In this document: in pieces, positions 1,519 to 59,229 of the stretch
Layout: each line of letters starts with the position of its first letter
How positions within the stretch are numbered: the first letter of the stretch is position 1
NCBI GenBank assembly: GCA_964589975.1
Contig: CAZPVH010000004.1
Location: 10,469 to 74,468, forward strand
Origin: an uncultured Candidatus Saccharibacteria bacterium
GTDB taxonomy: Bacteria; Patescibacteriota; Minisyncoccia; Phycocordibacterales; CSBR16-119
Direction: 5' to 3'
Length of the DNA: 64,000 bases
Notes under the pieces: generated by a model
The model's database searches: none
What the model saw: only the letters and a program-made list of their open reading frames with translations
What the model was told of the DNA's origin: nothing
Made by a program: the position numbers and the translations under genes

Positions 1519-1643
1519 CGGTGGTTGGTTTTTTGCAATACTACAGTATTCTAGTTTTTTGTAAATGACCTTAAATATTCTTTTTCACAATTTTAATTTT
1601 TAAATACTTAATACTGTATACCTAATACTGTATACTTTTAAAC

Positions 1644-3149
1644 ATGTCATTCTCACGAGTGTATTCGGCTCAGGTGAATGTTCTCGATGGACAGCTCATC
1701 ACAGTCGAAACTGACCTCACAAAGAAAACTTTGCATAATTTCATGATTGTCGGCCTGGCAGACAAGGCCGTCGATGAGGCGCGCGACCGCGTTGGTTCGG
1801 CGATAAAGAATTCCGGCTATAAGTCCCCGAAACAATCTAATCAAAAAATTGTGGTCTCGCTCTCGCCAGCATCGGTGAAGAAAGAGGGATCATATTTCGA
1901 CCTTGCCATCGCGCTCGGCTACTTGCTCTCGAACGAAGAACTAAAATTTGATCCCGAAGGCAAGATCTTTATCGGCGAGCTCTCACTCGATGGGGAATTG
2001 AAACCGGTCAAAGGAATTCTCCCTCTTGCCAAATCCGCCAAGGAACTCGGATTCAAGGAAGTTTTTGTTCCAGCGGGTAACGCCAAGGAAGCAGCGCTAA
2101 TTGAAGGCCTCAGTATTTATCCGGTGAAAAACCTAAAGGAGGCAATAGACCACCTAAACGCGGAGAATAAGTTCTGTATAAATTGCCAAGAAGTGACACC
2201 GATCACTTACAAAGAAACTTTCGGAGGAAACGACTTCTCTGATATTCGGGGGCAAGAGCTCGCCAAAAGGGGACTCGAGATTGCCGCGGCCGGCGGGCAT
2301 AACATTGCCATGTATGGGCCGCCCGGAACGGGTAAGACTATGCTCGCCAGGGCATTTTCTGGAATCCTTCCCGGGCTTTCGAAAGATGATGTGCTCGAGG
2401 TTACCGCCATTCACTCTATCGCCGGCATACTTGAGGATTCTTTGGTGACGGAGAGACCTTTTCGAAGCCCGCATTCGACAAGTAGCTATGTTTCGGTAAT
2501 TGGCGGAGGAACATTTCCGAAGCCGGGCGAGGTGACGCTCGCGCACAAGGGCGTACTTTTCCTCGACGAGTTTCCGGAATTCGATAGACGAGTCCTCGAA
2601 TCTCTTCGTCAGCCCCTCGAAGACCGGGTTGTGCACATTTCCCGCGCCAAAGGCTCGGCGTCATATCCGACGAACTTTATTCTGGTCGCGGCCATGAACC
2701 CGCCACCAGCGAACGCGACAGCGGGAGACATTGTCAGGTATCGTCGGAAAATCTCGGGTCCCATTATGGACCGCATCGACCTATGGGTGAATGTTCTAAA
2801 TATTGATTACGACAAATTGGGGTCAAAAGTAAAAGAAGGCGAGGAAAGTTCTGTCATAAAGAAAAGAGTTCTTGCCGCCAGAAAAAAACAAGAAGAGCGA
2901 CTAAAGAATTCTAGAGCTAATACGAATTCAGAGATGGGCGTGAAGGATATTGATAAGCTGATTGAGATTTCAAAAGAAGTGAGAGATATATTAAACACAA
3001 CAGCCAAGAAGCTGAATCTTTCCGCTCGCGCGTATCATAGGGTAATAAAGCTTTCGCGCACAATTGCAGACCTAGACGGTACTGAGAATATTGAGATGAA
3101 GCATGTGCTGGAGGCCCTGCAGTATCGGCCTAAGCAAGAAGAATACTAA
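1644..3149 (+). CDS. comM: YifB/ComM family Mg-chelatase-like AAA+ ATPase
   Basis: N-terminal Lon-like domain; Walker A GPPGTGKTMLA; VLFLDEFPEF Walker B; conserved C-terminal region of the ComM/YifB family. Confidence 0.85.
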   Translation: MSFSRVYSAQVNVLDGQLITVETDLTKKTLHNFMIVGLADKAVDEARDRVGSAIKNSGYKSPKQSNQKIVVSLSPASVKKEGSYFDLAIALGYLLSNEELKFDPEGKIFIGELSLDGELKPVKGILPLAKSAKELGFKEVFVPAGNAKEAALIEGLSIYPVKNLKEAIDHLNAENKFCINCQEVTPITYKETFGGNDFSDIRGQELAKRGLEIAAAGGHNIAMYGPPGTGKTMLARAFSGILPGLSKDDVLEVTAIHSIAGILEDSLVTERPFRSPHSTSSYVSVIGGGTFPKPGEVTLAHKGVLFLDEFPEFDRRVLESLRQPLEDRVVHISRAKGSASYPTNFILVAAMNPPPANATAGDIVRYRRKISGPIMDRIDLWVNVLNIDYDKLGSKVKEGEESSVIKKRVLAARKKQEERLKNSRANTNSEMGVKDIDKLIEISKEVRDILNTTAKKLNLSARAYHRVIKLSRTIADLDGTENIEMKHVLEALQYRPKQEEY

Positions 3150-4596: not shown

Positions 4597-4611
4597 TGAT
4601 ATAATTTCCCC
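4597..4611 (+). promoter_or_regulatory. extended -10 promoter (TGaTATAAT) 6 nt upstream of the ATG (leaderless)
   Basis: TGATATAAT-TTCCCC-ATG; an identical module sits upstream of the gene at 22315. Confidence 0.45.
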
Positions 4612-7600
4612 ATGAATTTGGAATCTAGAAAAACCAAAGATTTGGGTGAGTTGGCCGATATTCTAAAAACGGCCGAAGCAGAGGATCGGCAGAAGGAGGG
4701 AGTAAGGGCGATGGAGGAGGTCCAAGCTCGGGCCAGAGAAGAAGCCGAAAAGGATAAAGCTGCAGAAAATGTACAGATCGATGTTTCAGGAGTTGAGCCG
4801 GAAGTTACCCAAGAATTCGAAAAGTCTCAAGAACAGCACGGAGGGTACAGATGGGAGAACGGTGACGGGAAGACTTTTCAGCCTCTTTTAAAACAAATAG
4901 ACCGTATCGCCTTGGAAGAACTCACTAAGGCCCAGATAAAGAAATATGCTGAAGAGATCGCCAAGGGGAATTATCCTTCTAAGGCAGGGTCCATAAAATT
5001 TTTTAATGAACACGAACAAGAGATAGACCGAGAGGTGCAGATCATAAAGGCAAAGGATAAGGAAGCAAATCTAAAGGAGACTATTTCAAATAATTTTCCA
5101 AATAGTGAGAAGCCTTCTGGGGCAACCGAGAAGAAGTCGAGTGGTGTTGGCCGCATGAGGTTCGACGGCACTGATCCTTATGGACTTCGGATAAATAAGC
5201 AGATCAGGTATTCCAAATCACCTGAAAATTCAGCCAAATCTGCAGAAACTACAGAATCAGCATTTGCAAGATGGGATGGGAAGCAAGAAAGGATTCATCT
5301 TGAGCCCGGTTCGCAAGTTCGGGCTGGTTCGATTGAGGCGGAGCGCGAACCTGTTGGCCGGCCGGAATCTTTTAAGTTGGACACAAAACCAGAAGGCCTA
5401 CCCAAAGAAGCTCCACGATTTGGAGAGGTGGAATCTCATGCCAGGGCTGGAGGAAAGACCATAATTAGTGAGAAAGCCCCTGCCGCGCCAACTGCTGCTC
5501 CGGAAAAGCCTAACGGGAAGGAACGAGTGGAGAAACCGGTTATTGAAAGGACAGAGGCACCTAAGCCTAATCCTGCGTCAGAAAGACTTCAAACGCCAGC
5601 TGCTGCATTTGAGGGGCGAACGGAAACGAAGTCTGAATCAAATAAGGAGCTTGACGGTCTTGTTCAATTCAATCTCGGAAAATTTGGCATTATTAACGGC
5701 AATGATACCGAAGAAGCTAAGGGCCTCAAGATGGCAGAACTTCGCCGTGAAATACCAGAGTTCTTTGCTCTCTCGTCAGCACAACAGCTCTATGCCCTTG
5801 AGAAGCTTAGTCAGAAAAAGTCACACAATCTAGATGTGGAGACCAAGCGAGCTATCAAAGACGCTGACGCCACTAATAAGAAGGGCGGAATATTCGGACG
5901 TATTGGACGAGGTCTCACCAGAACTGGACGCACTGCGACGCTTCGCAAAAAAACATTGGAAGAGATGAAAAAGGGCGGTCTTGCAAGCTATAAAGAAGAT
6001 CTTCAGGGAATTGCTGGATTCACGCTTGCTCGCGGCAAACAGATCGAGGTTGGAGAGAAGGGTATGGTTATAAAATTCGTTAATCGCGGTGAAGAGGTAG
6101 AAGGAAAGCATGGAAAAATCATAGACGCGTATAACCGCGCTGCCACAGCTTTGGCCGAAACGCCGTACGTTCACACAACAGGCGATCTTACGCCTCTTGA
6201 AATAGTGGCCAGAAATAAATTCAAAAAGGCGGAAAAGGCTTTTGAGGCGGCACGAGCAGAACTTATGGCGTTCGAAGGAAAGGGTCTTCCGCCAGAAGAG
6301 ATGAAAAAGAAAGTTCTTGAATTCTCAAACCTCGATGATGATATTCGTCTGAACCAGGCATACTCATATGATTCAAAAGATCTCTACGGCGATACAAGCA
6401 TTTGGAACAAGATGGGCCAGATCGCGAATGATTACAAGATAACCGAAAAGGGCGGTTACGCTCTATCCGGTTTCGCGGCACGAACAATGGGCAAATACGC
6501 TCTTGGACTCGGCGGCGGCGTAGTCGCGTCTTCATTTATGGGAGGACTCCGCGGCTGGATAAGCAAGCGTCAGGAATTCAAAGAACTTGCAGAGCGAAAA
6601 CGCTCGGGCGATGACGTTAAAGGCAAAGAAGCTGTCGGGGTTAAAGAGGTTATTGACGGCGCTAGCTATGCGGCAAAGATAGACAAGCTTATTGCCGAGA
6701 TAGAAAACGCAAAAAGTCCGAAGCGAGACGCGCTCATCCAGAGTTTGCAGAACCGAGTTATGATTGCGCGCGAGCGTGATGAAATGGGACTTGTAAACTT
6801 TGGCAAAGCTAACAAAGAATTGGCGGCGAAATATGACTTCTTCCGAGCGCTGAAGGCTGCCAATAGAATTCTTCTTGAAACTGATCCGGAGGTCATGAAG
6901 ACGGCTGATGCTGTGGCGGAAAGAATGCAGTCGCTCTATTTCAAAGATGAAATAAAAGATGTAGAAAAGAAAAAAGCGATCAAGGCATCAATCAAGCGTG
7001 GCGCTATAGCTGGGGCAGGATTCTTTGTCGGAGGCTTTATTGCAAACGACCTGGCTTTCCATAATGGCGAATGGACGAAAGGCGCTATCAAAGATGTATC
7101 TGACCTGAGCGAGAAGGCTCTTGGAGAGCTAAAAGAATTCGCCAAGGAAGCAAACGCAGCAGCGAATGTGCAGTTTGCGAAACTGGGAAGACTTGGCCTT
7201 GACGCTATAGACGGAAACAGCGCCATGAATCCTGAAGCTACAGGCATCAATAAGCCTAGTTTCCATAAAGTTGAAGTCATGCCGGAAATTCCACGGCTTG
7301 AGCAGACGTTTTCTATGGTGGGCGGACGAGGAGCGATTGGCGCTATCGATGAACTTCAGGAGAAACTTCTGGCTCGCTATGGCGAGAACATGCCGGAGAA
7401 TTTGAAAGCCTTTATGGCGGCCAAGCCGGAGAAGCTCGCGATTGATTGGGGCTTTTATCGCCCAGGCGAAGAGGCTGAGAGCGCCGCTGTTATGAAAGGC
7501 GCGAAGTTTGGTATTACAAACGAAGGCCAGATTACGTTTGAAGATCATGAGGGCAATGTTGTCAGACTTGGTGGCGGCGAGAAATTTGCCGGCCGAATGT

Positions 7601-8775: not shown

Positions 8776-8795
8776 AGTCTCGTGATATAGTGTTG

Positions 8796-8926
8796 TGATG
8801 AATCCCGTTAGTGACCGCGGTCGCTAGCGAGAATTCGTTATCTGAATATGGAATTCTTACTTTATACAAATATTAGTACTATGGCAGTTTGCGGGACGAC
8901 CGCGACCTGTCACTAACGGGATGAAT
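8796..8926. repeat. MITE-like palindromic element (family 2) with about 24-bp terminal inverted repeats and GATGAAT/ATGAAT flanking direct repeat
   Basis: Left arm GAATCCCGTTAGTGACCGCGGTCG, right arm CGACCGCGACCTGTCACTAACGGGAT. The right arm ends at the ATG of the downstream helicase gene. Confidence 0.45.
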
Positions 8927-11773: not shown

Positions 11774-11803
11774 CAAAAACGAGATCCTTGCTATGATAGC
11801 GGT

Positions 11804-12163
11804 ATGAAAGCATTGCGCTATTTATTTTTAATTGTTTTGATTGCGGCCCCCTTATTAACGCTTGCTGCAGTTCTCAGGCCCTTTGGCGGACGCATAGCAA
11901 CAGCGCCTACGCCAGGAGTCTCATGTCCGGCCGGTAAACAGCCCGGCAGTCCTTTTACTGTATTGCCGGTGACACCAATGCCGCCATGGCTAATGGTCGG
12001 AGACTATCATCCCATCTCTACAAAATACCAGCTTGTTCCAAGTGCTTGGATTCTCGGTTTATATATACCTACTCCTATCCCAGAGTGCGCCTCCAACTCT
12101 CTCCCGCCAGTGCCTGTAAGTGGTTTTAGGACGTATATGCACGGAACTTCTGTTTCTTATTAA
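11804..12163 (+). CDS. small secreted Pro-rich protein (possible pilin-like T4SS subunit)
   Basis: 119 aa with a signal peptide, 2 Cys and a Pro-rich mature part; TGcTATGAT-N6-ATG leaderless-type promoter. Confidence 0.45.
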   Translation: MKALRYLFLIVLIAAPLLTLAAVLRPFGGRIATAPTPGVSCPAGKQPGSPFTVLPVTPMPPWLMVGDYHPISTKYQLVPSAWILGLYIPTPIPECASNSLPPVPVSGFRTYMHGTSVSY

Positions 12164-15356: not shown

Positions 15357-15448
15357 GGATAAAAGGTCGGATTTGCACACATTAGAGCCCCGGAAACGGG
15401 GCTCTGGTGCTATAATCTCCATATGCTTGCGCCTTTTGCGCACGATTA

Positions 15449-18466: not shown

Positions 18467-18916
18467 GTAGAAAGTAGTAAGTCGTAAGTCGCACGAACGA
18501 TGAACGAGCAAATAAAAAGAGGGCACAAGGATCTTGTAGTATGGCAAAAGGCCATGGACTTGGTCGAGGAAATTTATAAGTTGATTAAAGAGCTTCCAAA
18601 GGATGAGAAGTTTAATCTGGTTTCACAGATAAGCAGATCAGCTGTATCTATACCCTCAAATATTGCCGAAGGGTATAGAAGGGGGTCTGATAAATCATTC
18701 AAACAATTTTTATTAATTGCCTTCGGTTCAAGCGCCGAACTTGAAACTCAAATTGAGCTGGTCAAGAGACTGGTTTTAGCCCCCAATTTTGATTTTAAAG
18801 CAGTTGATAATCTCTTGTCTGACACCATGAGATTACTGAACGCTTTCATAAAGAAACTAGGTTGATCAAAGAGTTATCCGTGCTACTTACGACTTCCGAC
18901 TTCCAACTTACTGCGT
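18461..18916. repeat. IVS-like hairpin element: heptamer-repeat inverted repeats enclosing the four-helix-bundle gene
   Basis: Left arm GTAAGTAG-AAAGTAG-TAAGTCG-TAAGTCG-CACG (18461–18499). Right arm CGTGCTACTTACGACTTCCGACTTCCAACTTAC (18879–18916). The proximal stem pairs about 17 of 20 nt. Confidence 0.5.
18500..18865 (+). CDS. four-helix-bundle protein (23S rRNA intervening-sequence protein family)
   Basis: 121 aa; WQKAMDL...ELPKDEKFNLVSQISRSAVSIPSNIAEGYRRGS...ELETQIELVKRL matches the TIGR02436-type family. Confidence 0.8.
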   Translation: MNEQIKRGHKDLVVWQKAMDLVEEIYKLIKELPKDEKFNLVSQISRSAVSIPSNIAEGYRRGSDKSFKQFLLIAFGSSAELETQIELVKRLVLAPNFDFKAVDNLLSDTMRLLNAFIKKLG

Positions 18917-18928
18917 TATAATTAACTC

Positions 18929-19345
18929 ATGCGTTTCCAGGTTCCCCAATTCATCGACATCGAAGACAAGATCTTCGGACCGTTCACGTTCAAGCAGTTC
19001 GTCTATTTGGCGGGCGGCGCCGGCGCGTCTTACGCCATTTTCAAGCTTTTGCCTATCTACATCTCCGTTTTGCTTATCTTGCCGATCCTTGGAGTCGCCA
19101 TGGCACTTACTTTTTACAAAGTGAACGGCAAGCCGTTCATTGATATCCTCCAAGCCTGGTTCATATACACCTTCAAATCGAAGCTTTTCATCTGGAAGCA
19201 GCGCAAGGTCGAGAAAAAGAAAGAAGTTGTAGAAAAGAAGCCAGAAGCTCATCCAATGTCGAACATTCCAAAGCTTACGGAGTCGCGTCTCTCAGATATT
19301 TCTTGGAGCCTAGATGTCCTAGACATGCAGCAGAAGGATAAATAA
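18929..19345 (+). CDS. PrgI/VirB3-like small membrane protein of Gram-positive-type T4SS
   Basis: 138 aa; FQVPQFIDIEDKIFGPFTFKQFVYLAGGAG plus two TM helices, typical of the PrgI family; TATAAT-N6-ATG promoter. Confidence 0.6.
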   Translation: MRFQVPQFIDIEDKIFGPFTFKQFVYLAGGAGASYAIFKLLPIYISVLLILPILGVAMALTFYKVNGKPFIDILQAWFIYTFKSKLFIWKQRKVEKKKEVVEKKPEAHPMSNIPKLTESRLSDISWSLDVLDMQQKDK

Positions 19346-22245: not shown

Positions 22246-22314
22246 CGGAGAGGTCTCAATAGTTTTCCTACTAGCAGCTTATAACTTCGGACTCGGTTTT
22301 GATATAATATTCCC

Positions 22315-22899
22315 ATGAATCAAGACAATACGGACCCGAAGACTATCAACTCTGATGACCAGAATACGATGGCTGATGCGGGCGTCGACATAACCGGCGG
22401 ATCGGGGGAGAATATTGCCGAAGGCGAGAAGGAACAGGCGTCGGAAGTCATGGATATTGATAGTTCGGCAGATGATGCTACGGCTGAAAAGGCCGGCATA
22501 AAGTTCGTCCAAACCGACAAAACTGATTTATCCGCGATGGCTGAGGCCAAGCAGAAAGCAGCATCTGACTCAAGGGCTCTAGAAGCTGAGTTTAAGGCGG
22601 AGTTTCCGGATTTCAAGGGTCCGCTTAAACCAGAATCAGAAAATGCTGTTATGGGTAAAGTAACTTCGCTCGGAACACTCCTTGCTAAAATTCAGGAAAA
22701 GCTTGGCTTAAAGAAGACATCGGTCCGGGAAGAGCTTGGAAGTCTCAAAAAGATGAAGGATGCTATCGGAAAAGACATTGAAGAGATCAAGGAGCTTGAG
22801 AGTTCAGAGCAAAAGATTAAAGAAGAGATTGGCAAAATTGAGTCCATTAGGAAAGAGGTAGAAGATATAGAAGAGAAGCTCGGAGAAGATTTGAAGTAG
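22315..22899 (+). CDS. acidic coiled-coil hypothetical protein
   Basis: 194 aa, very acidic; preceded by the same TGATATAAT-N6-ATGAAT module as the gene at 4612. Confidence 0.55.
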   Translation: MNQDNTDPKTINSDDQNTMADAGVDITGGSGENIAEGEKEQASEVMDIDSSADDATAEKAGIKFVQTDKTDLSAMAEAKQKAASDSRALEAEFKAEFPDFKGPLKPESENAVMGKVTSLGTLLAKIQEKLGLKKTSVREELGSLKKMKDAIGKDIEEIKELESSEQKIKEEIGKIESIRKEVEDIEEKLGEDLK

Positions 22900-30626: not shown

Positions 30627-30754
30627 ATATTTAATTGTTACTCCTATTAAATTTTAAACCCTTAATAAAATAGCCCTGGAGGCCAGGACAATCACGCTTC
30701 TATAATAATATTCCACATCAAATAAGTCAAATGTTATGTGCGGCGTGATAAAAT

Positions 30755-33727
30755 ATGGCAATGAAAAAACTTTCAGATGAATTCGTGCTTTCGGTCGGGA
30801 TGCTCCTTACGGCGTTTTTGATTTTTCAAGCAGCTATTATCCCCGGGATGTACAACAAAGATCAAACAGCTGCAGTTTTTACATCTAAGAAAGATTCGTT
30901 TGAAATCAGTCCTTCCAAGTCAAACCCAAAAGTATTTAGTTTTGAATATAAATTTGAAACTTTAAAATCTGGCAAAGAAGCTTACTTTGATATACCGATT
31001 AGGAGGTTTGATGACAAAAGAACTTCTCTTGGCGCGGACAATGAGATTTTTGGCAACATAAGAGACGCATGGAACTATCCTGTCAGAGAAAATGCGTTCA
31101 TGAATGCTCGTGGTGGGGGAGAAAAAAGAGGCGGAGATGACCGCTCTGATGAAGATCCAGACGTTCTTGGGCAAGTGAACTGTCGAGCAAATACTGATAT
31201 TGATGGCTATTTTAAAGCTTATTTTGAGGATGTGGCGCTGGGGAATGGTGTCGGTTACGCGGATCAGATTTTTGGAGAGGCTAGGCGAAACGAAGTCTGT
31301 CAGGTTCTACAGGATATCTCAGAACTCATCAATCTTGATGAGACGGACGTAACTCCTGATATTATATTCATGGCAGACCCTGGAAATATTCCGCCAAATG
31401 CACTGGCAGGAGCTTCATCCTATTTTAACAATGCCTCGATTGGGCCGGACAACGGATTTCTACATCGCCACATCATCTCGGAGGAAGATCCAACGCCGGC
31501 AGACGGAATGTTTGATGCTTATGTTGTCACAAATTTTAATGGTATCAGCTGGGATGTTGATACGGATTTGAATCCTGGCACATATGACATGTATTCCGTC
31601 CTGTATCACGAAATATTACACGCCCTTGGTTTCAGGGGACTTCTACCTGCTGTTATAACTAATTCAGGTTCTACGTTCCATCACGATACATTTGACAGCT
31701 TCTCATTCAAGGATGATTCTTTAGCGGATCAGTTCATTGATCCGAGTGACTTTAGTCTTGATGTATTTAACGGAGCCCCATCGCCTTGGTTTGTTACAAA
31801 CGATGTTGTTTATAGGGGCACGAGGAATTTGGACGGGGCAGTTCCTGACGGCATCAGGCCTATTTATAGCCCGATTGGGTGGCAGCAGGGCTCGTCTCTG
31901 TCACACTTTGATATGGCGAGAGCGAATGGCGAGGTCTACGTTATGCATCCATCAATTGGCACCAATACCGAGCGTTCGATTCACGAGCATGAAAAGGAGG
32001 TTTTATGCCACCTAGGCTATGTGGTAGAGGGGGTGAGTGGCTGCGAAGACGCGACGCCTTGGGCCGAAAATGATGTCGCGGCCCTACAGACTGGAAGCGC
32101 GATTTGCATTGAACCGCTTTTAAATGATTTTTCTCTTGAAAATGGGACTGTCCGCCTCAATGAGGTTATTCCTATAGATATTCAAGCAGGGGATGTTATT
32201 GCGTACCATAGTACTGTTAACTGCACAGGTGCGCCGCTCCCGGATGCTGATTGGGCCAGGACCATATTATTTGAATCAACAAGCAATGATAGCGTAAGAC
32301 TTCTGGCTTATAGGGATAGAGATACTGCCTCGGATAGGTTGTCGAATCAGGCAATTATCAAGATTGTGGGAGATTGCAGCAATGATCCAGATGAATATGT
32401 CTGCAATGGAGATTTCGAGATGACAACTGCCCCAAATGACGCATTCATTTCCTGTCCGAACGGCTGGGACCCCTTCATTTCCGCGACTACTTACTGGTGT
32501 AACGCATACGACGATGGCGCCTATGTTCTTTCGGCAAATCAGCAGATGGACATAGTTGTTCCAGAGAACGATGATTATATTGCAGATGTTAATCCTTTGC
32601 CTTGGGCCTTCTCTAACAAGCTTCGTCAGCCACTCGTTGCCGGGGAAGATTACATTTTGTCTTTCGATATGTGGGGCCACATGGATTATATACCTCCGGC
32701 GCTCATAATCGGTTTAAATATGGAGCCATTGGTCGGCCACACCGCTGAAACATGGTATGCCGACGCGGAGTCTTTTCCCGATCAGACTATACCGGTAACC
32801 CAATTGGGAGAGCCGATTTCTCAAACCATCCTAAATGTCTGGTGGGATCATTACGAAATTCCATTCACGGCGAATGACAACTATGAATCTCTTATTTTTG
32901 GATCAGATATATACAAATTATTCCTAGACAATATATCTATCAAGCGAGCAGATATTTTTGAAGAAGGCGGATTAAATACAGTTCAGGGCAAGGTTTATTA
33001 TGATCTCAATTCAAACGGTCAGCTAGAGACAGGCGAGAGCGGGTTGAGCGGTATAACAGTTGGAATATTTCCGCTTGGTTCAACAATACCGCTTGCCACC
33101 ACAACGACAGAAGATGGTGTAAATCTCGGTGAATACGTGTTTGAAAATATGCCCGACAATGTATATAGAATGGTCCTCATGGATGAATCTGTTTTTCCAT
33201 CTGTTACCGAACCAGCGTCTAATAGCTTATTGCCGGGGTACAACCATGCAGTGCATACGTATATCGTCGATGGCGAGACGTCCGAAGGTAATGATTTTGG
33301 TGTCACGCTCGAGGTTGGTCAAATGCCGAATATTCATCTAAAGAAAGGGTTGGCGGATTCCTCGCTCTCTCTTATTGATCGCAATATTACATGGCAGATT
33401 GAGGCTACAAATACGGGAGAAATCGCTGCTCATAACGTTAATATTTCAGACCCTATTCCACTCGGACTTATATACTATAGCCACGTTACACCATCTCCAA
33501 ACATTTATAGCCCAGATACCCATATCTGGAATCTCCCGGTCGTTCAGTCGGGCCAGACGATCGTTCTCCAGATCACCATGAAAGTTCCGCTAGGAACTTG
33601 CGGCAAAAAAGACAATACGGCCAACCTGGTATCTCTAAATGAAGTCGATAGCGATCCAGCTGACAATGTCGCATCGGCGACAATCAAGCTTCGACCGTGC
33701 GGAAATCAAATTGAATCAGTGAAGTAG
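30755..33727 (+). CDS. large secreted protein with HExxH zinc-metallopeptidase-like motif, CnaB/SdrD-type and DUF11 repeat domains
   Basis: Signal peptide, YSVLYHEILHALGF, a CnaB-like segment (VQGKVYYDLNSNGQLETGESGLSGITVG) and a DUF11-like C-terminus. The true start is probably the ATG at 30761 (TGaTAAAAT-N6-ATG). Confidence 0.6.
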   Translation: MAMKKLSDEFVLSVGMLLTAFLIFQAAIIPGMYNKDQTAAVFTSKKDSFEISPSKSNPKVFSFEYKFETLKSGKEAYFDIPIRRFDDKRTSLGADNEIFGNIRDAWNYPVRENAFMNARGGGEKRGGDDRSDEDPDVLGQVNCRANTDIDGYFKAYFEDVALGNGVGYADQIFGEARRNEVCQVLQDISELINLDETDVTPDIIFMADPGNIPPNALAGASSYFNNASIGPDNGFLHRHIISEEDPTPADGMFDAYVVTNFNGISWDVDTDLNPGTYDMYSVLYHEILHALGFRGLLPAVITNSGSTFHHDTFDSFSFKDDSLADQFIDPSDFSLDVFNGAPSPWFVTNDVVYRGTRNLDGAVPDGIRPIYSPIGWQQGSSLSHFDMARANGEVYVMHPSIGTNTERSIHEHEKEVLCHLGYVVEGVSGCEDATPWAENDVAALQTGSAICIEPLLNDFSLENGTVRLNEVIPIDIQAGDVIAYHSTVNCTGAPLPDADWARTILFESTSNDSVRLLAYRDRDTASDRLSNQAIIKIVGDCSNDPDEYVCNGDFEMTTAPNDAFISCPNGWDPFISATTYWCNAYDDGAYVLSANQQMDIVVPENDDYIADVNPLPWAFSNKLRQPLVAGEDYILSFDMWGHMDYIPPALIIGLNMEPLVGHTAETWYADAESFPDQTIPVTQLGEPISQTILNVWWDHYEIPFTANDNYESLIFGSDIYKLFLDNISIKRADIFEEGGLNTVQGKVYYDLNSNGQLETGESGLSGITVGIFPLGSTIPLATTTTEDGVNLGEYVFENMPDNVYRMVLMDESVFPSVTEPASNSLLPGYNHAVHTYIVDGETSEGNDFGVTLEVGQMPNIHLKKGLADSSLSLIDRNITWQIEATNTGEIAAHNVNISDPIPLGLIYYSHVTPSPNIYSPDTHIWNLPVVQSGQTIVLQITMKVPLGTCGKKDNTANLVSLNEVDSDPADNVASATIKLRPCGNQIESVK

Positions 33728-39883: not shown

Positions 39884-39909
39884 AAAAACCCGGATATCCG
39901 GGTTTTTTG
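39884..39909 (+). terminator. intrinsic terminator
   Basis: AAAAAACCCGGATATCCGGGTTTTTTGC, a perfect hairpin with a T6 run. Confidence 0.7.
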
Positions 39910-39914
39910 CTACA

Positions 39915-40697
39915 ATGATGTGTATGAAAAAGGACAAGATTTTGATAGTTGGCAATTGGAAGGCGAATCCTGATAGTTTGCGCCTCGCCAAATCTATACT
40001 GAGCGGTTTGCAGAAAGCTTCGGCCAAATCAAAAAACATTGATGTGGTGGTCTGTCCGCCGGTCATCTACCTTGAAAGTCTCCGAAATCAGGCGAGAGGC
40101 ATATCTCTAGGCGCGCAGGATCTCTTCACCGAGCCGAACGGCGCTTTTACCGGTGAAGTCGGTTATGTGTCACTCCTTGAGACAAAGATCAAATATGCCA
40201 TCATTGGTCACTCAGAGCGACGTGAGGCTGGAGAGACAGATGAAGAAATCGGCAAGAAGATAAAAACCGCTCTTTCTGTCGGAATCAGTCCGATTCTATG
40301 CATAGGCGAGAAGTTCCGCGACAAGGACATGTCGTACCTGGGCGTCCTAAAGCAGCAGCTCTTGGTCGCTTTCAAGGAGGTGCCAAAGGCGAAGGTGCGG
40401 AATGTAATTGTAGCCTATGAGCCCGTTTGGGCTATCGGTAAAGGCGCTGAACGTGCAGCTAGGCCGGACGAGATCAAAGAAGTAGTTATATTTATTCGCC
40501 GAGTAGTAGGAGATATGTATAAAACAAGCGCTGTGCCGCCAATCAAGATTATATATGGTGCATCTGTTGATGGAAATAATGCTAAATATATTGTTGAAGA
40601 GAGTGGTGTAGGGGGGCTTCTGGTTGGTCGCGCGAGTTTAGCCCCGAAAGTTTGGGGTGAGATAGTCAAAGCATTGAGCCAAATAAAATATGATTAA
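39915..40697 (+). CDS. tpiA: triosephosphate isomerase
   Basis: VGNWKAN, catalytic AYEPVWAIGKG; the likely true start is the third ATG at 39924 (TACAAT-N7-ATG). Confidence 0.9.
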   Translation: MMCMKKDKILIVGNWKANPDSLRLAKSILSGLQKASAKSKNIDVVVCPPVIYLESLRNQARGISLGAQDLFTEPNGAFTGEVGYVSLLETKIKYAIIGHSERREAGETDEEIGKKIKTALSVGISPILCIGEKFRDKDMSYLGVLKQQLLVAFKEVPKAKVRNVIVAYEPVWAIGKGAERAARPDEIKEVVIFIRRVVGDMYKTSAVPPIKIIYGASVDGNNAKYIVEESGVGGLLVGRASLAPKVWGEIVKALSQIKYD

Positions 40698-43939: not shown

Positions 43940-44344
43940 TTAGAGATTAGCCTTTATTTTTTCAGCAAATTCAGACATTTCACCGGTTGAGTCATATGAT
44001 ACTTCCGGGCGAGTTGATATGTGCACCTCGCTTTCGTTGTAGCGTGGGATGAGATGGATATGGAAATGTGGTACCTCATTACCAACAACGCCAATTTGGA
44101 CATAATCGCATGGTATTCCTGAACGCATCGCATTTATAATCTCCTTGGCTTTGATGAAAATTTCTCCTACGAGCTCGTCGGGGGCTTCATGAATCCATGT
44201 GTAATGTGCCTTTGGTATTAATAGGGTGTGACCTTTTGTAACTGGGTGAATGTCCAAAAATGCCAAGAATTTTTCATCCTCGTAAACCTTTGTCGCAGGG
44301 ATCTCCCCATCGATTATCTTCTCGAATATCGTTTTCATAGTCAC
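43940..44344 (-). CDS. HIT-family (histidine triad) nucleotide hydrolase
   Basis: HxHxHxx motif HFHIHLIP; 134 aa. Confidence 0.85.
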   Translation of the reverse strand: MTMKTIFEKIIDGEIPATKVYEDEKFLAFLDIHPVTKGHTLLIPKAHYTWIHEAPDELVGEIFIKAKEIINAMRSGIPCDYVQIGVVGNEVPHFHIHLIPRYNESEVHISTRPEVSYDSTGEMSEFAEKIKANL

Positions 44345-44370
44345 ATTTTATCACATGTTATACTTGGCAA

Positions 44371-46071
44371 ATGTCTTTAAAGGAAATCCCCACCGAAATT
44401 GAAAATGAGCTCGTAAAATACCCGCCTCTCACGAGGCGTCTATTGTGGAATAGGGGAATAACTTCTGCGGATGAAGCGGAAGAGTTTATGAATCCTTCTT
44501 ACGAGCAGCATATTCATGATCCTTTTCTCATGAAGAGTCTCGAAAGGGGTGTTGATCAGATTTACACGGCTATAAAAGCTGACCAGAAGATTTGTATCTT
44601 TGCGGACTATGACTGCGACGGAATTCCTGGAGCTGTGATGTGGGATGATTTCTTTAAGAAAATCAATTTTACAAATTACCAGATATATATTCCTGATAGA
44701 CATAAAGAAGGGTACGGACTCGGCATGGAATCTATCAAAGAGATTTATGAAGCTGGCGCGAAGCTTCTCATCACACTTGATCTCGGGATTACCGCCGTAG
44801 AAGAAGTCGAATATGCGAAAACTTTGGGACTCCCTATAATTATTACTGATCACCACCTTCCTCAGGAAAAATTACCAGATACCTTGATTATTAATCCCAA
44901 ACAAAAGGGTGATACTTATCCGGATAACATGCTATGTGGTTCGGGCGTAGCTTTTAAAGTAATCCAAGGCTTTATCAAGAAGTATGGAGATGAATTTCAG
45001 ATTCCGGCAGGGTTCGATAAGTGGTTGCTCGACATGGCAGGACTTGCAACGCTCGCAGATATGGTGCCACTACGACATGAAAATAGGGCTATCGCCCACT
45101 TCGGACTTAAGGTTCTCAGAAAAACTCGCCGCCCGGGACTACTTCGGCTCCTCCGGAAAGTAAATGTCGACCCGCAGAATTTGCAGGAAGACGATGTTAC
45201 TTTTTCTATATGCCCGAAACTTAACGCCGCGAGTCGAATGGACTCGCCCATGCGCGCATTTGAACTCCTGGCCGCTCCCGAAGAATCTTCGGCGGCGCTT
45301 CACGCAGATCACCTCATAAAGATAAATGACGAGCGAAAACTTCTTGTCGCGCACATCATGAAGTCAGTTAAGAAAACTTTTAGTCATGAATCGAGAAGCC
45401 AGAAAGCAGTAATTGTTATCGGTGATCCGACATGGCGCGTTGGGGTCCTTGGGCTCGTGGCGGGTAAGATTGTCGACGAATACAAGCGCCCAGCATTCGT
45501 TTGGGGGCTCGAAGGCGGAACGGTGATCAAGGGATCATGTCGTTCGGACGGGACTATGAACTTGGTGGAGATGATGGCGCATTTGCCCGACGGCAGCCTT
45601 CTTGATTTCGGCGGACATGCAGGCGCCGGGGGGTTCTCGGTCACACACGAAGGGATTCATTTTTTGGAAGAGCGCCTCATTGAAGCGCATGGAAAGACGA
45701 AGAAAATTATTATTGATTCTGAAGAAAAAAACTTTGACGACAAACTATCGCTAGACGATGTGAATGCGCGAACCTTTATGGAAATTGATAAGCTCGCGCC
45801 ATTCGGGGTAGGGAATCCGAAGCCGGTATTTATGTTCGAAAACATTTTGATCGACGAAGTAAAGATCTTTGGCAAAGCCAAGGATCATTTAGAGCTCGCC
45901 TTCAAAGACTCACGTGGCGGACGAGTAAAAGCGATCGCCTTTTTTAAGAAACCTGAGGATTACGGAGACAAAATCTCGGTAGGAAAGAAAATAAATCTCC
46001 TCGCCAACATTGAAAAATCTATCTTTGGCTGGAAACAGGAAATCCGTCTTCGGATATCAGACATATCCTAA
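44371..46071 (+). CDS. recJ: single-stranded-DNA-specific exonuclease RecJ
   Basis: DHH motifs (DYDCDGI, ITDHH), DHHA1 domain with GGHAGAGG, C-terminal OB-fold region. Confidence 0.85.
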   Translation: MSLKEIPTEIENELVKYPPLTRRLLWNRGITSADEAEEFMNPSYEQHIHDPFLMKSLERGVDQIYTAIKADQKICIFADYDCDGIPGAVMWDDFFKKINFTNYQIYIPDRHKEGYGLGMESIKEIYEAGAKLLITLDLGITAVEEVEYAKTLGLPIIITDHHLPQEKLPDTLIINPKQKGDTYPDNMLCGSGVAFKVIQGFIKKYGDEFQIPAGFDKWLLDMAGLATLADMVPLRHENRAIAHFGLKVLRKTRRPGLLRLLRKVNVDPQNLQEDDVTFSICPKLNAASRMDSPMRAFELLAAPEESSAALHADHLIKINDERKLLVAHIMKSVKKTFSHESRSQKAVIVIGDPTWRVGVLGLVAGKIVDEYKRPAFVWGLEGGTVIKGSCRSDGTMNLVEMMAHLPDGSLLDFGGHAGAGGFSVTHEGIHFLEERLIEAHGKTKKIIIDSEEKNFDDKLSLDDVNARTFMEIDKLAPFGVGNPKPVFMFENILIDEVKIFGKAKDHLELAFKDSRGGRVKAIAFFKKPEDYGDKISVGKKINLLANIEKSIFGWKQEIRLRISDIS

Positions 46072-48290: not shown

Positions 48291-48499
48291 CGCTCCTAAA
48301 TACTTGACTCCACGAAACTTCTCATATAGTATGACCGTAACGCCGAAGTGAAGACTCCTGTCGTATGTCCCGCCAGTCTGGTGGGCTCAATTTTTCAGGA
48401 CTTTGCTCGGACTATTATAAAAATTAGGATGTTGACTGCTTTAATCCCTTTTGCGCGTTCTCGCGGACGGAGGTTAGGACAGCCAACCAATGTAATTAT

Positions 48500-50775: not shown

Positions 50776-50812
50776 GGATCCCGTTAGAGGCCGCGATCGC
50801 GGACGATAACGG
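50776..50812. repeat. short palindromic element related to family 2 (collapsed TIR-only copy)
   Basis: ATCCCGTTAGAGGCCGCGATCGCGGACGATAACGG shares the ATCCCGTTAG..CCGCG..TCGC arm with the element at 8796–8926. Confidence 0.35.
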
Positions 50813-50822
50813 AAAAAAATTT

Positions 50823-51560
50823 ATGAAAACACAAAACTCACAAAAGAATACTGAAGTTTCAGAAACCTCAAGATCGCGATCTGCCTCTAACGGGATGGAA
50901 GCAACCATCTACAACAAAGAAGGAAAAGCAGCAGGGAAAATAGAATTGCCAGCGGATATCTTTGGTCTCTCTTGGAATGCCGACTTGGTTCACCAGGTCA
51001 TGACTTCGATGAACCAGAACGCGCGAGCGAACACAGCTTCGACTAAAGATCGATCTGAGGTCTCGGGTACTGGCGCGAAGCCTTGGAAGCAGAAGGGAAC
51101 AGGCCGCGCGCGACATGGTTCACGCCGTTCTCCAATCTGGGTCAAAGGAGGCGTGGCTCATGGTCCGAATCCTGACCGAAACTACACAAAGAAGATCAAC
51201 AAGAAGATGAGCGCCAAAGCTCTCTTTACCGCAATATCAAAGAAGATGAAAGACGGAGAGGTTCTTTTCGTCGATACGCTCTCGATGGGAGAGATGAAAA
51301 CGAAGGAAGCTGCAAAGGCACTCATGGCTCTTGGTGGCATTACCGGCTTCGAGCGCCTCCAAGGCTCAAAGAAAGTTGTTGCGCACATCGCAACCGCGAA
51401 GCGCGAAGATAATACCGCAAAGAGCTTCAACAACATTCCGTTCGTCGAAGTTGGCGAGATCCGAAACATCAATCTTCTCGACGTCATCAATCATCGTTAC
51501 CTTATCATTGAAAGCCCAAAGGAGTCTGTCGAATTCCTGGCCTCTAAGCTAGCAAAATAA
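50823..51560 (+). CDS. rplD: 50S ribosomal protein L4
   Basis: PWKQKGTGRARHGS...GGVAHGP; N-terminal 24-aa extension. The start could be the internal ATG at about 50895. Confidence 0.92.
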   Translation: MKTQNSQKNTEVSETSRSRSASNGMEATIYNKEGKAAGKIELPADIFGLSWNADLVHQVMTSMNQNARANTASTKDRSEVSGTGAKPWKQKGTGRARHGSRRSPIWVKGGVAHGPNPDRNYTKKINKKMSAKALFTAISKKMKDGEVLFVDTLSMGEMKTKEAAKALMALGGITGFERLQGSKKVVAHIATAKREDNTAKSFNNIPFVEVGEIRNINLLDVINHRYLIIESPKESVEFLASKLAK

Positions 51561-52939: not shown

Positions 52940-52966
52940 CATTCCTACATTTGTTATAATCCTCAC

Positions 52967-53590
52967 ATGAAACTCAATTTCAAATATGACCAAGAGAAAG
53001 ATGTAGAGAACTTCATCAAATCTGCCAAATCCGTAAACAGCAAGAAGCCGACAGGCGTCATGCAGAAATATATTGATATTTACGGAGAGAGCTTTGAGAC
53101 AGAAAAACTAAACGAATTCATTACGGAAATGTTAAATGGTGTAGATGTAAACCAAATCATTTCAGATATTACGGCGAAGTGGTCAGCCATGGAAGATGAA
53201 TTCATCATGCGCTCAGAAAAGATCTTCGGCTGCAAATATCAGGTGGAGGAAGTGACGGTATTCCTTACGACGAATTCCAGATGTACATATAATACGCTTG
53301 AGAAATATTTTTTCGTGAGCATTCCACGGGCAGATGTAGCGCATGTGACGATCATGCATGAGCTTTTACATTTCTATACGAAAGAAGCATTCGAGGATTT
53401 CATACCAAAAGAAAAATACAATGATATAAAAGAAGCGCTTACGGTCTTACTAAACGTAGAATATGCTGACCTGATGGGGGATAAAAAAGACGAAGGATAT
53501 CCTCAGCATACGCAAATGCGCCAGAAAATCATCGACTTGTGGTTAGAAGGCAAAAATATGAAGGAAATAGTGGCTATTTTGGCCGGTTAA
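52967..53590 (+). CDS. hypothetical protein with HExxH motif (putative zinc-dependent hydrolase)
   Basis: 207 aa, VTIMHELLHFYTKEAF; TGtTATAAT-N6-ATG leaderless-type promoter. Confidence 0.5.
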   Translation: MKLNFKYDQEKDVENFIKSAKSVNSKKPTGVMQKYIDIYGESFETEKLNEFITEMLNGVDVNQIISDITAKWSAMEDEFIMRSEKIFGCKYQVEEVTVFLTTNSRCTYNTLEKYFFVSIPRADVAHVTIMHELLHFYTKEAFEDFIPKEKYNDIKEALTVLLNVEYADLMGDKKDEGYPQHTQMRQKIIDLWLEGKNMKEIVAILAG

Positions 53591-53999: not shown

Positions 54000-54491
54000 A
54001 TGTCATATGCTAAAATAATTACCATGATGACGCGACGCCAAAAAGTCTGGAGGAACAGAATCATTGTCTTTTTCATTTTTCCGCTAGCCGTAATCCTGCC
54101 TATTGTTTTGATAGACAAGAAGCCTGTAGATGAGAGAGGGGTTGAGGTCCCAGAAGGTCTTGAGCTAAATGAACAGGGGTTTTTGGTTGAAAAAACTGAT
54201 GGAGGTCCAACCGTGGAAGAAGAAACGGCTTGGGCTACTGCGGAGAATGGTTTACCAGCAGGTTGGGCTATTTGGTCTGATGAGATTAGCGGAAGGCCAG
54301 TAGAGAAGTATGCACCGGTAAAAGACATGCCAAGTTTTGTTGTAAAAATAGAGGCTACCATTACTGACAAACTTGTTCGTCCTTACGAGTGTGTTGGTCC
54401 AGATGATGTGGTGTTCTGTGTCGTAGGGAATAATCCTGACGTCCTGCGTTATTTTAAAGTCCTTAAGTACTATTACGAACCAGAAGAATAA
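54000..54491 (+). CDS. membrane-anchored hypothetical protein
   Basis: 163 aa with an N-terminal TM helix. Confidence 0.5.
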   Translation: MSYAKIITMMTRRQKVWRNRIIVFFIFPLAVILPIVLIDKKPVDERGVEVPEGLELNEQGFLVEKTDGGPTVEEETAWATAENGLPAGWAIWSDEISGRPVEKYAPVKDMPSFVVKIEATITDKLVRPYECVGPDDVVFCVVGNNPDVLRYFKVLKYYYEPEE

Positions 54492-55677: not shown

Positions 55678-56040
55678 ATGACACGATCACTTAAAAAAGG
55701 TCCATACGTAGATATAAAGCTATTGAAAAAAATAGCTGGAAAGAAGCCCCAAGCAACTGGGGTTATTAACACGTGGGCGCGCGCGTCCCAGATCGCTCCT
55801 GAAATGGTCGGGTTCGTTTTTGGCGTGCACAACGGCCGCGAGCACATCAAAGTCCTTGTTTCTGAAGACATGGTCGGACACAGGCTCGGCGAATTTTCTC
55901 CGACCCGTAAGTTCCACCGACATGGCGGTAAGCTAATGAAGGAGCTTGAGCAGAAGAAGAAAGAGGGCGAGGTCGCTGCCGCGCAGGCTGCAAAGGCTGC
56001 CGCTGACGCTGGGTCATCTAAGACGCCAGCTAAGAAATAA
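55678..56040 (+). CDS. rpsS: 30S ribosomal protein S19
   Basis: SLKKGPYVD...HNGREH...GHRLGEF, plus a K/A-rich C-terminal extension. Confidence 0.95.
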
Positions 56041-56042
56041 TT

Positions 56043-56495
56043 ATGAAAGCCATACTTAAAAACTATCGGCAGTCTCCACGGAAGGTTCGCCTGGTGGCTA
56101 GATCTGTGCGCGGAAAGACTCCGGCGCAGGCTCTCATGATTCTTGATTTCATGCCAAAGCGTGCTGCTGAACCAATAATGAAACTCATCGTTTCAGCTGT
56201 TGCGAATGCTAAAGTAAATAACAACGTAGACGTTGCCGACCTTATCATCAAAGGCATTGAGATAAATGGTGGTGTAACCCTCAAGCGTTTCCGACCGCGA
56301 GCACGAGGCTCTGCATACCGCATCAACAAACGCACCAGCCACATCGTGGTGACTTTGGACAAGAAGCCTGGAAAGGGTGGCGTTGTCGCCGAGGCTCCAA
56401 AGGCTGAGGCTAAAGTCGCGAAGCCAGCAGCAGCAAAAAAAGCTGCGCCGAAAAAGGCGGCGGTAAAGAAAGCGGTTAAGAAAAAGGCCGAATAA
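56043..56495 (+). CDS. rplV: 50S ribosomal protein L22
   Basis: L22 core plus an AKP/KKA-rich C-terminal extension. Confidence 0.93.
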   Translation: MKAILKNYRQSPRKVRLVARSVRGKTPAQALMILDFMPKRAAEPIMKLIVSAVANAKVNNNVDVADLIIKGIEINGGVTLKRFRPRARGSAYRINKRTSHIVVTLDKKPGKGGVVAEAPKAEAKVAKPAAAKKAAPKKAAVKKAVKKKAE

Positions 56496-56499
56496 TTTT

Positions 56500-57186
56500 A
56501 TGTCAAAGAAAGTAAACCCATATTCACATAGACTAGTAGTTCTCCGAGATTGGAAATCTCGCTGGTTTTCTACGGGCAAGAAATTCGCCGAGACTCTAAA
56601 GGCGGATATCCTCATCCGAGACTTCTTGAAGAAGAAGCTTCGCGCCGCTTACATTTCATCTGTTGAGATTGAGCGTTCTCGAAAGGGAGCTAGAATCATC
56701 ATCAAGACTTCACGACCTGGCGTCATCATTGGCCGCTCTGGCGAAGGCGCAAAGAAGCTCCGCGAGGATATATTGAAAATGATGAAGAAGGCTGGTCTTC
56801 CAGTTCTCGAGGAGATGAAGATCGATATTCAGGAAGTTACAAATCCTGACGCAGACGCTCAGATCGTTGCGTATTCTATTGTCGAAGGCCTAGAGAAGCG
56901 ACTTCCGTTCAAGCGTGTTATCAAAATGACTCTTGAAAAGGTCATGGCGTCGCGCGAGGTAAAGGGTGCTCGAATTGTCGTCTCCGGACGATTGAACGGC
57001 GCTGATATGGCTCGTCGAGAGGAAGTTAAGCAGGGCTCGATCCCTCTTCAGACTCTCCGCGCCGATGTCGACTTTGCTCGAGAGCGAGCAGTTCTCTCAT
57101 ACGGAACTCTCGGTATCCGCGTTTGGATTTACCGAGGAGAAGTCTTCGAGAAAGATCGCGCTAATTCAGCCGCTAGGAATAAATAA
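56500..57186 (+). CDS. rpsC: 30S ribosomal protein S3
   Basis: KH domain and the S3 C-terminal domain (GRLNGADMAR). Confidence 0.95.
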   Translation: MSKKVNPYSHRLVVLRDWKSRWFSTGKKFAETLKADILIRDFLKKKLRAAYISSVEIERSRKGARIIIKTSRPGVIIGRSGEGAKKLREDILKMMKKAGLPVLEEMKIDIQEVTNPDADAQIVAYSIVEGLEKRLPFKRVIKMTLEKVMASREVKGARIVVSGRLNGADMARREEVKQGSIPLQTLRADVDFARERAVLSYGTLGIRVWIYRGEVFEKDRANSAARNK

Positions 57187-57196
57187 CTAAACTTTT

Positions 57197-57622: not shown

Positions 57623-57631
57623 AACTGTAAT

Positions 57632-57817
57632 ATGGCAAATATTGACCTAAAATCAAAGAAAGTCGAGGATCTCGTAAAGGAGATGAATGAAGCGGCTCTG
57701 GATCTACAGAAATCCCGCTTTAACGTCGCCGGCACGAAGAGCCAGAGAGCGAACCCATCAAAGCTCAGGAAGACGATCGCTCGGATAAAGACCGAGCTTC
57801 GCTCCCGAAATAAATAA
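57632..57817 (+). CDS. rpmC: 50S ribosomal protein L29
   Basis: 61 aa, coiled-coil, conserved position. Confidence 0.9.
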   Translation: MANIDLKSKKVEDLVKEMNEAALDLQKSRFNVAGTKSQRANPSKLRKTIARIKTELRSRNK

Positions 57818-57822
57818 ACTAT

Positions 57823-58071: not shown

Positions 58072-58074
58072 TTT

Positions 58075-58446: not shown

Positions 58447-58450
58447 TTTT

Positions 58451-58666: not shown

Positions 58667-58677
58667 TTTTTAATACC

Positions 58678-59217: not shown

Positions 59218-59229
59218 ATTTAATGAAAC

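Follow-up and report, generated by a model that had tools for sequence, protein, structure and literature searches.

Does a -10 promoter box placed at a fixed and very short distance from the ATG mark leaderless mRNAs in the 64,000-nucleotide stretch of contig CAZPVH010000004.1 analysed here (positions 10,469 to 74,468; hereafter the window)? The question is raised by the segment 4597-4614, which reads TGATATAAT-ttcccc-ATG and starts a gene at 4612, and by a first-pass annotation that had described the same arrangement, an extended -10 box six or seven nucleotides before the ATG, at further genes. The spacing between hexamer and ATG is given below as N6, N7 and so on, genes are named by their start coordinate, and genes with this arrangement are called leaderless-type. 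The evidence makes it probable that -35-less extended -10 promoters produce leaderless mRNAs in this organism, a Parcubacteria-type bacterium whose translation would be independent of the Shine-Dalgarno sequence (SD). The sequence assigns the window to the candidate phyla radiation (CPR), and within it to a Parcubacteria/Paceibacteria-type bacterium: the best named matches of EF-Tu (83-91% identity) and TpiA are metagenome-assembled genomes of Patescibacteria, Paceibacterota and Parcubacteria, and in the ribosomal-protein operon S5 and L15 are not separated by an L30 gene. A scan of the window for tRNA and Rfam families gave no match.

Syntenic relatives (L004-L007, L089-L091, L093 and L094; TpiA 60-85% identical) were found by exact-protein look-up of homologues of TpiA and of the protein encoded by gene 15449. 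The window's own genome could be extended (L092 and L001) by about 10 kb, which contributed two further leaderless-type starts and contained no rRNA gene. The TpiA search of genome contigs gave one distant Acidimicrobiales locus only (L003, 34% identity), and the TpiA-alignment search of metagenome contigs gave distant TpiA loci only (43% identity at most), which served as the negative-control set.

A -10 box coupled to the start codon

The motif was counted on both strands of the window and in 200 dinucleotide-preserving shuffles of it, a check that the first-pass annotation had suggested, and the counts lie far above background. The full form, TG.TATAAT-N6-ATG, occurs 4 times against 0.01 expected (400-fold enrichment), and the relaxed form, TG.TA...T-N6-ATG, 11 times against 1.42 expected and a shuffle maximum of 5. 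TG.TA...T by itself is not enriched (99 vs 94), so what stands out is the fixed distance at which the motif is tied to an ATG. From N0 to N20 the spacings in the window form a single peak, at N6 (11 sites, 7 of which lead into an open reading frame (ORF) of at least 60 codons), and N7 adds 2 sites with ORFs of this length. The histogram likewise peaks at N6 and N7 in 106 kb of relatives (8 and 11 sites, respectively), and it shows no peak in 792 kb of loci from unrelated bacteria. The peak is specific for ATG: the window and relatives together have 15 sites at N6 and 13 at N7 before ATG and 0 before GTG or TTG, and control triplets in the same sequences give no spacing peak. Per locus, the clade has 1.3-2.8 sites per 10 kb and the controls mostly 0-0.5; L089 has 0, and its -10 boxes are without TG.

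These counts bear on the simplest alternative, a compositional or chance artefact of A/T-rich intergenic DNA beside ATG. In its favour, TATAAT taken by itself shows just a mild excess in the window (32 vs 23.8 expected); the 400-fold enrichment of the full motif, the single sharp spacing peak, its absence at other triplets and in other bacteria, and the conservation in orthologues described below leave this explanation with practically no probability. The -10/ATG arrangement is real and highly non-random.

The element has the make-up of an extended -10 promoter without a -35 box. TGn is present in 9 of the 11 window promoters, one base upstream of the TAnnnT hexamer, which is the extended -10 configuration. 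The best -35 match does not exceed 3 of 6 bases in 10 of the 11 promoters, the same as the random distribution, and a two-hexamer promoter scan recovers none of the leaderless-type promoters. Altogether nine to eleven window genes fit the arrangement.

Orthologues retain it. The -10 box stands at N6 or N7 before tpiA in 8 of 8 distinct clade loci (the window counted; tpiA of L089, with AAATATAAT, is the exception to TGn), at N6 before recJ in four loci (the window, L006, L007 and L090; L091, the fifth recJ locus, is without a clear -10), at N6 or N7 before the HIT-family gene in four loci (the window, L005, L006 and L007), at N6 or N7 before the family of gene 22315 in four loci, and at N6 before the prgI and 11804 families in three loci each. 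The prgI gene (18929) has its counterparts at L093:13070 (TGGTATAAT-N6) and L094:13478 (TATAAT-N6); gene 11804 at L093:6284 (TGGTATGAT-N6) and L094:6112 (TGCTATGAT-N6); and gene 22315 at L094:18161 (N7), L007:419 (N6) and L090:919 (N6), where the BLASTP matches (1e-68 to 7e-41) begin within the first 10 residues.

The phylogenetic footprint, computed as pairwise identity among orthologues of 8 families, separates these elements from their surroundings. Identity is about 0.3 between -36 and -10 relative to the hexamer end, rises to 0.77 and 0.74 at the T and G of TGn, falls to 0.36 at the base between TG and hexamer, is 0.94, 1.00, 0.55, 1.00, 0.72 and 0.94 at the six hexamer positions, 0.30-0.55 in the spacer, and 1.00 at the ATG. 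Orthologous promoters thus keep TG-n-TAnAnT and ATG while spacer and -35 region drift to background identity, a pattern that matches the contacts expected of RNA polymerase at an extended -10 promoter together with the start codon. The trait may extend beyond the immediate clade, as suggested by two distant TpiA loci (L010 and L017, 38-39% identity) with 3 and 2 TGnTAnnnT-N6/7-ATG sites per about 20 kb; SD-like starts are almost missing there (2 of 23 and 0 of 21).

Most of the sites listed by the first-pass annotation are borne out: the arrangement is present at 4612, 11804, 22315, 30761 and 52967 (N6) and at tpiA, 39924 (N7). At 18929 the TATAAT-N6-ATG part holds and the extended -10 part does not, since CGT precedes the hexamer. 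The two genes that had been named as probable cases fall away as leaderless genes. At 13080 the box reads TGGTATAAT-N4-ATG, the orthologues have N12 and a second window ATG, 13089, lies at N13; this gene is predicted to have a leader of about 6 nt. At 36619 there is no -10 at N5-7, and the relatives share a longer, conserved leader. Sites missing from that list were found at 44371(+), 44338(-), 54024 (N7) and 1644 (TATACT-N7), and two more N6 sites, 8798 and 15423, each stand before a very short ORF. When the criterion is loosened to TAnnnT without TG, operon-internal TAAAAT contexts containing stop codons are also caught (17798, 61261, 62689).

Transcription units and the leaderless interpretation

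The arrangement is found at first genes of transcription units. A gene set for the window was built from ORF length and codon usage, and in it each of the 11 sites lies before a gene that is set off from what precedes it by 30-267 nt, by a divergent orientation of the neighbour or by a terminator hairpin. The TGn motif is not present before internal genes, whose median gap is 6 nt. Same-strand neighbours are less than 30 nt apart in 32 of 57 pairs (median 6), and TAA makes up 71% of stop codons. About 35 window genes could begin a transcription unit, and about 11 of these (about 30%) are leaderless-type.

The remaining first genes point to a second class. About 10 promoters of the form TTGAC(T/A)-16/17-TAnnnT, nine of them with 17-nt spacing, lie before genes with leaders of 18-167 nt, among them tuf, the S19 and S14 operons, infC, nusA and an M23 peptidase gene. 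TGnTAnnnT is also found at leadered genes (33829, 43711, 53702), further upstream. The two promoter classes of the window thus appear to track two modes of initiation. Some leaders show sequence features of their own: GAAGCTT(A/T) lies a few bases downstream of the -10 in the leadered genes 33829, 36619 and 41893 (33790-33828, 36570-36618 and 41845-41892) and is conserved in the L004-L006, L089 and L091 orthologues; low-complexity repeat leaders, including (R)GCTAA and TACTTAC repeats, precede leadered genes, in relatives as well (nusA, clpP and L20 of L006 and L007; L094 14575-14620); and GTAAGT/ACTTAC repeats flank the gene 18500-18865 (18460-18499 and 18880-18915).

Starts outside the leaderless-type set speak to how ribosomes find their genes. 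SD-like 4-mers lie upstream of 3.9% of the 129 non-leaderless starts collected from window and relatives, compared with 11.5% of random positions. The same starts are poor in G (6-12% at -17..-1, against a background of 24%) and rich in A (40-53%), with 55% T in position -1, and the enriched words are TAAT (60 vs 10.6 expected), AATAA (41 vs 4.6) and AATAAT (22 vs 1.4), an enrichment that partly reflects the preceding TAA stop 0-12 nt away. SD-like words precede 3 of 63 window starts vs 20-55% in most control loci. In the ribosomal-protein/secY operon (55678..63957, +) the internal starts read TAA-N1-12-(T-rich)-ATG, without SD. The CA-rich word CAACCA, considered as a possible substitute for SD, stands just upstream of several leadered starts (8 vs 0.5 expected). 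The rarity of SD-like words, the scarcity of G and the enrichment of TAAT and AATAAT support the earlier suggestion that initiation in this organism is largely SD-independent.

The proposed mechanism follows from a property of the polymerase. The +1 of a sigma-70-type RNA polymerase lies about 7 nt past the -10 hexamer, so the first base of a transcript from these promoters would be the A of AUG or its immediate predecessor. In this way -35-less extended -10 promoters (TGnTAnAAT) that end 6 nt, sometimes 7 nt, before the ATG would drive about a third of the transcription units, and the resulting leaderless mRNAs would be translated by direct binding of ribosome and initiator tRNA at the 5'-terminal AUG, with no ribosome-binding site (RBS). 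Operon-internal genes, which start 0-12 nt past the preceding stop (mostly TAA) in a T/A-rich, G-poor context, would be suited to stop-start coupling, and leadered first genes would rely on full TTGAC(T/A)-17-TAnnnT promoters and A/C-rich or A/T-rich, unstructured leaders.

A different reading of the same arrangement makes TAnnnT at 6-7 nt from the ATG a translation signal, an A/T-rich non-SD element bound by the ribosome or S1, with the promoters further upstream. A/T-rich start contexts are indeed general here (TAAT at 60 and AATAAT at 22 of the 129 starts), and TAAAAT-like strings also precede operon-internal genes; the internal genes, though, use a different motif, without TG. The conserved TG and the invariant T1, A2, A4 and T6 are contacts of RNA polymerase rather than those of a generic A/T-rich stretch, and the motif is confined to the first genes of units, often right after terminator hairpins that leave no space for a second promoter (39924, 54024, tpiA of L091). 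The ATGs of the HIT-family gene (44338) and recJ (44371) are 33 nt apart with their promoters back-to-back, and at the three leadered genes that have TGnTAnnnT further upstream it clearly acts as a -10. We regard a translation signal as improbable.

Several points weigh against the leaderless interpretation preferred here. The non-extended cases need positional support, as the loose criterion over-collects. Some assignments hinge on the choice among nearby in-frame starts (30755/30761, 39915/39924, 54000/54024, 44344/44338), and N7 cases could have a 1-nt leader. We infer the position of +1 on the A of ATG from the spacing alone, and likewise infer how ribosomes are recruited and whether the 16S rRNA keeps its anti-SD; no 16S rRNA gene was found in the window (Rfam) or in 123 kb of related loci. 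On the other side stand the spacing, the first-gene position, the specificity for ATG and the conservation in orthologues, so that the earlier leaderless proposal is well supported for the set with 13080 and 36619 removed.

The arrangement offers a testable picture of initiation in mostly uncultured candidate-phyla bacteria with reduced ribosomes, and the compact TGnTAtAAT-N6-ATG unit could serve as a design rule for expression constructs in these lineages.

Individual starts and a palindromic element

Table 1 Positions of promoters, starts and repeat elements (window coordinates unless a locus is named).
Feature	Position	Strand	Remark
TATACT-N7-ATG	1628..1646	+	possible leaderless start of Mg-chelatase/ComM-like gene 1644-3149
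TGATATAAT-N6-ATG	4597..4614	+	1387-aa gene 4612-8775; the ATG is the first start codon of the ORF
TGATATAGT-N6-ATG	8783..8800	+	putative former leaderless start of uvrD/pcrA-like gene, now before a 9-codon ORF
117-bp palindromic MITE-like insertion (CCCGTTAG...CTAACGGG)	8804..8920	+	flanked by duplicated ATGAAT
TGCTATGAT-N6-ATG	11789..11806	+	119-aa gene 11804-12163
TGCTATAAT-N6-ATG	15408..15425	+	opens the 8-codon ORF MLAPFAHD-stop from 15423
TATAAT-N6-ATG, no TGn	18914..18931	+	PrgI-family gene 18929-19345
TGATATAAT-N6-ATG	22300..22317	+	acidic 194-aa gene 22315-22899
TGATAAAAT-N6-ATG	30746..30763	+	988-aa DUF11/SdrD_B surface protein gene, start 30761
TGCTACAAT-N7-ATG	39908..39926	+	tpiA start 39924
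TGATAAAAT-N6-ATG	44336..44353	-	HIT-family gene, 44338 down to 43940
TGTTATACT-N6-ATG	44356..44373	+	recJ-like gene 44371-46071
Second copy of the palindromic element	50780..50894	+	between L3 stop and true L4 start 50895, ATGGA on both sides
TGTTATAAT-N6-ATG	52952..52969	+	207-aa gene 52967-53590, inserted between L2 and S19 ribosomal protein genes
TGCTAAAAT-N7-ATG	54008..54026	+	probable start of 155-aa gene 54024-54491
TTGACT-17-TAGTAT	48304..48332	+	167 nt upstream of tuf (leadered)
TTGAC(T/A) promoters	419-447, 4518-4490(-), 30730-30702(-), 43761-43733(-), 47666-47638(-), 53596-53624, 55532-55560, 59922-59949		
Third and fourth copies of the palindromic element	L094 6509-6623 and 18789-18903		both flanked by ATGAA
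Fifth copy of the palindromic element	L012 4477-4604 (unrelated contig)		no ATG on left side
AAAAAGTAGGTGTGGGGG sequences	L006 9965-9990, 14430-14450, 14480-14505		
GCAATCTGGCCCCGC sequences	L007 12470-12500, 12545-12570		

The individual sites (Table 1) differ in how closely their surroundings constrain the start. Gene 4612 has a divergent neighbour, an upstream gap of 267 nt and a best -35 match of 1/6. At tpiA the T-tract of the upstream terminator hairpin continues into the TG, so that there is no room for a -35, and the N-termini of TpiA homologues align to ATG 39924, not to the annotated ATG 39915. Gene 54024 has a terminator (53961-53991) with its T-tract immediately upstream of the promoter, and the alternative ATG, 54000, is at the end of that T-tract. 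A terminator-like hairpin lies about 20 nt upstream of the 52967 promoter. In the surface protein gene 30761 an in-frame ATG at 30755 directly abuts the -10. The weakest case is 1644, where TG adjoins the hexamer and is not a canonical TGn. In its divergent intergenic region, between 1518(-) and 1644(+), the direct repeat TAATACTGTATAC is present twice at 1594-1636; the repeat overlaps the putative -10 and could be a regulator binding site.

Two further observations concern the surroundings of such promoters. Five genes without family assignment (52967-55514) interrupt the S10 operon between L2 and S19, with their own leaderless-type promoters (52967 and 54024), a full promoter (53596-53624) and terminators. 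In two relatives lineage-specific sequences lie directly upstream of TGn, AAAAAGTAGGTGTGGGGG at tpiA, HIT and recJ of L006, and GCAATCTGGCCCCGC at HIT and recJ of L007; both are absent from the window, and they could be operator or UP-like elements.

At 15423 a mini-ORF begins on the predicted +1, and its TAA shares bases with the start codon of gene 15449 (TAATG). The mini-ORF was considered as a conserved coupling device and rejected, as its 5' ATG is ATA in L094 and is absent from L093, where the leader differs. The site is most likely the promoter of an mRNA with a 26-nt leader for gene 15449.

The promoters of genes 4612 and 22315 had been described in the first-pass annotation as sharing a 24-nt identical module, as if a promoter and start cassette had been duplicated before two acidic proteins. 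Aligned at the ATG, the match amounts to 19 of 21 bases (the shared TGATATAAT, 4 of 6 spacer bases and ATGAAT), with longest exact runs of 9 and flanks at background identity, and only the 22315 protein is acidic (23.7% D+E vs 14.9% K+R; for 4612, 15.7% vs 15.4%). The near-identity from TG to the second codon, with its shared CCC-ATG-AAT, speaks for a copied or mobile cassette, and a hand estimate puts the probability of matching 7 of the 9 non-consensus positions at about 1e-3 for a single pair and at about 0.06 when some 45 promoter pairs are considered. The similarity, however, does not reach beyond the functional elements, the 4612 and 22315 proteins show no relationship in BLASTP (E = 0.59), and the other leaderless promoters have unrelated spacers. 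Spacer and second codon are not kept in the 22315 orthologues (taccct-ATGGCA, taagtc-ATGCCA, atggaac-ATGAAT), which speaks against inheritance of the shared bases as a cassette. A duplicated cassette is therefore very unlikely, and two strong promoters converging on the same consensus would explain the resemblance.

Start-prediction tools tuned to SD or to longest-ORF rules mis-call starts in such genomes, and the window provides examples. The deposited calls place tpiA at 39915 and give 54000 instead of 54024; that of gene 15449 lies 9 codons downstream of the first ATG (770 vs 779 aa). For the gene listed at 12120 (GTG), ATG 12174 is the most likely start. The longest-ORF rule extends L4 by 24 codons upstream, to 50823, through a palindromic element (50823-50894).

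This element was the least expected observation of the analysis. It came to light at 8798, where the promoter now stands before a short ORF: in L094:1637 the same promoter is directly on the uvrD ATG (TGATATAGT-gttctg-ATGAATTAT), and in the window the insertion 8804-8920 parts promoter and ATG 8798 from the real uvrD ATG, 8921. As RNA, the insertion is predicted to form a long hairpin (-49.6 kcal/mol, z -6.0) whose 3' foot abuts ATG 8921. Five copies were found (nhmmer E 6e-32 to 1e-10), about 115-128 bp long, with perfect terminal repeats of 8-12 nt and a sub-terminal CCGCG(A/G)TC. ATGRA is duplicated in 4 of 4 clade copies, and there are four filled/empty orthologous site pairs, one for each clade copy; L007, for instance, provides the empty site for the L4 copy, and L4 counted from 50895 has 221 aa, as in L007. 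Terminal repeats, copy number, ATGRA duplication and filled/empty sites lead us to regard the element as behaving like a miniature inverted-repeat transposable element (MITE) whose duplicated target is the start codon.

The clade copies sit exactly at the start codon, between an ATGRA(T) to their left and the ATGRA that belongs to the gene to their right, in the uvrD/pcrA-like gene, the gene of ribosomal protein L4 and two secretion-cluster genes. Each insertion leaves a short ORF on the old start, followed by a very stable hairpin that ends at the real ATG. No autonomous parent insertion sequence with the same termini was seen in about 235 kb of clade sequence, where no dedicated test for one was made; a scan of viral contigs for the element termini gave 20 chance-like matches, without extended repeats, CCGCG sub-termini or ATG flanks, and Rfam at a permissive threshold gave no match on 8760-8960. 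A tentative and rather doubtful idea is that start codon and immediate context form a self-sufficient expression module in this clade, exploited by a MITE that inserts at ATGRA. If so, insertion would turn a leaderless or coupled gene into a short mini-ORF, itself leaderless or coupled, followed by a hairpin abutting the real ATG, and for L4 and other essential genes to remain expressed, ribosomes would have to arrive at the second ATG by an unusual route (reinitiation, unwinding of the hairpin by translation of the mini-ORF, or shunting). This would be a new interplay of SD-less translation and mobile DNA.

Comparison with known systems

Bacterial MITEs include the Correia elements of Neisseria and the palindromic elements of Rickettsia. 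Like these, the element described here is short (about 120 bp) and non-coding, with terminal inverted repeats, several copies, filled and empty sites and a target-site duplication, and it is predicted to be co-transcribed with genes as a strong hairpin; unlike them, its duplicated target is the start codon itself (ATGRA, 4 of 4 clade copies).

Extended -10 (TGn) sigma-70-type promoters work without a -35, as in the galP1 class of E. coli, and are common in Firmicutes and Campylobacterota. The window promoters resemble the galP1 class in having TG one base upstream of TAnAAT and no recognisable or conserved -35. They differ in that the extended -10 is tied to leaderless starts, and in that the leadered genes carry a TTGAC(T/A) -35.

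A Pribnow box 6-8 nt from the start is a recognised signature of bacterial leaderless genes (PMC6028130). In group C of GeneMarkS-2 (Actinobacteria and Deinococcus-Thermus, e.g. Mycobacterium tuberculosis and Deinococcus deserti) TAnnnT lies 6-8 nt before operon-first starts, in about 25-50% of transcription units, and those mRNAs have no RBS (PMC6028130); the N6/N7 spacing and 11 of about 35 units found here are of the same kind. The remaining genes of group C use SD, whereas SD is depleted everywhere in the window, and the promoters here are strongly extended -10 (TGn in 9 of 11) with ATG as exclusive start codon; leaderless genes of some other lineages can also begin with GUG.

Two further systems bear on the SD depletion. 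The anti-SD motif CCTCCT was detected in only 48% of Parcubacteria, with no SD helix inferred (Tsurumaki et al. 2022, PMC9297842). The SD depletion of the window, which belongs to the same broad group, fits this finding; that study dealt with rRNA and ribosomal proteins, and the present one with mRNA start regions and promoters. Searches of the literature library gave no report linking leaderless genes with CPR, Parcubacteria, Patescibacteria or Saccharibacteria, only incidental mentions in reference lists, and the architecture described here, though known, appears to be undocumented for this lineage. The novelty is limited in this sense, as the architecture is well known from Actinobacteria, Deinococcus and archaea, and the main result is its extension to a new lineage. 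With group B (the non-SD pattern of Bacteroidota) the window shares an A-rich, G-poor upstream region and almost no SD, in first and internal genes alike (PMC6028130). In Bacteroidota, however, the mRNAs have leaders, and the definition of the group B motif excludes promoters, whereas many units here look leaderless. Internal genes here, unlike those of group B, have a T/A-rich motif (TAAT/AATAAT, with T at -1) in close coupling with the stop codon before it. Judged from these start regions, the organism of the window combines features of group C with features of group B.

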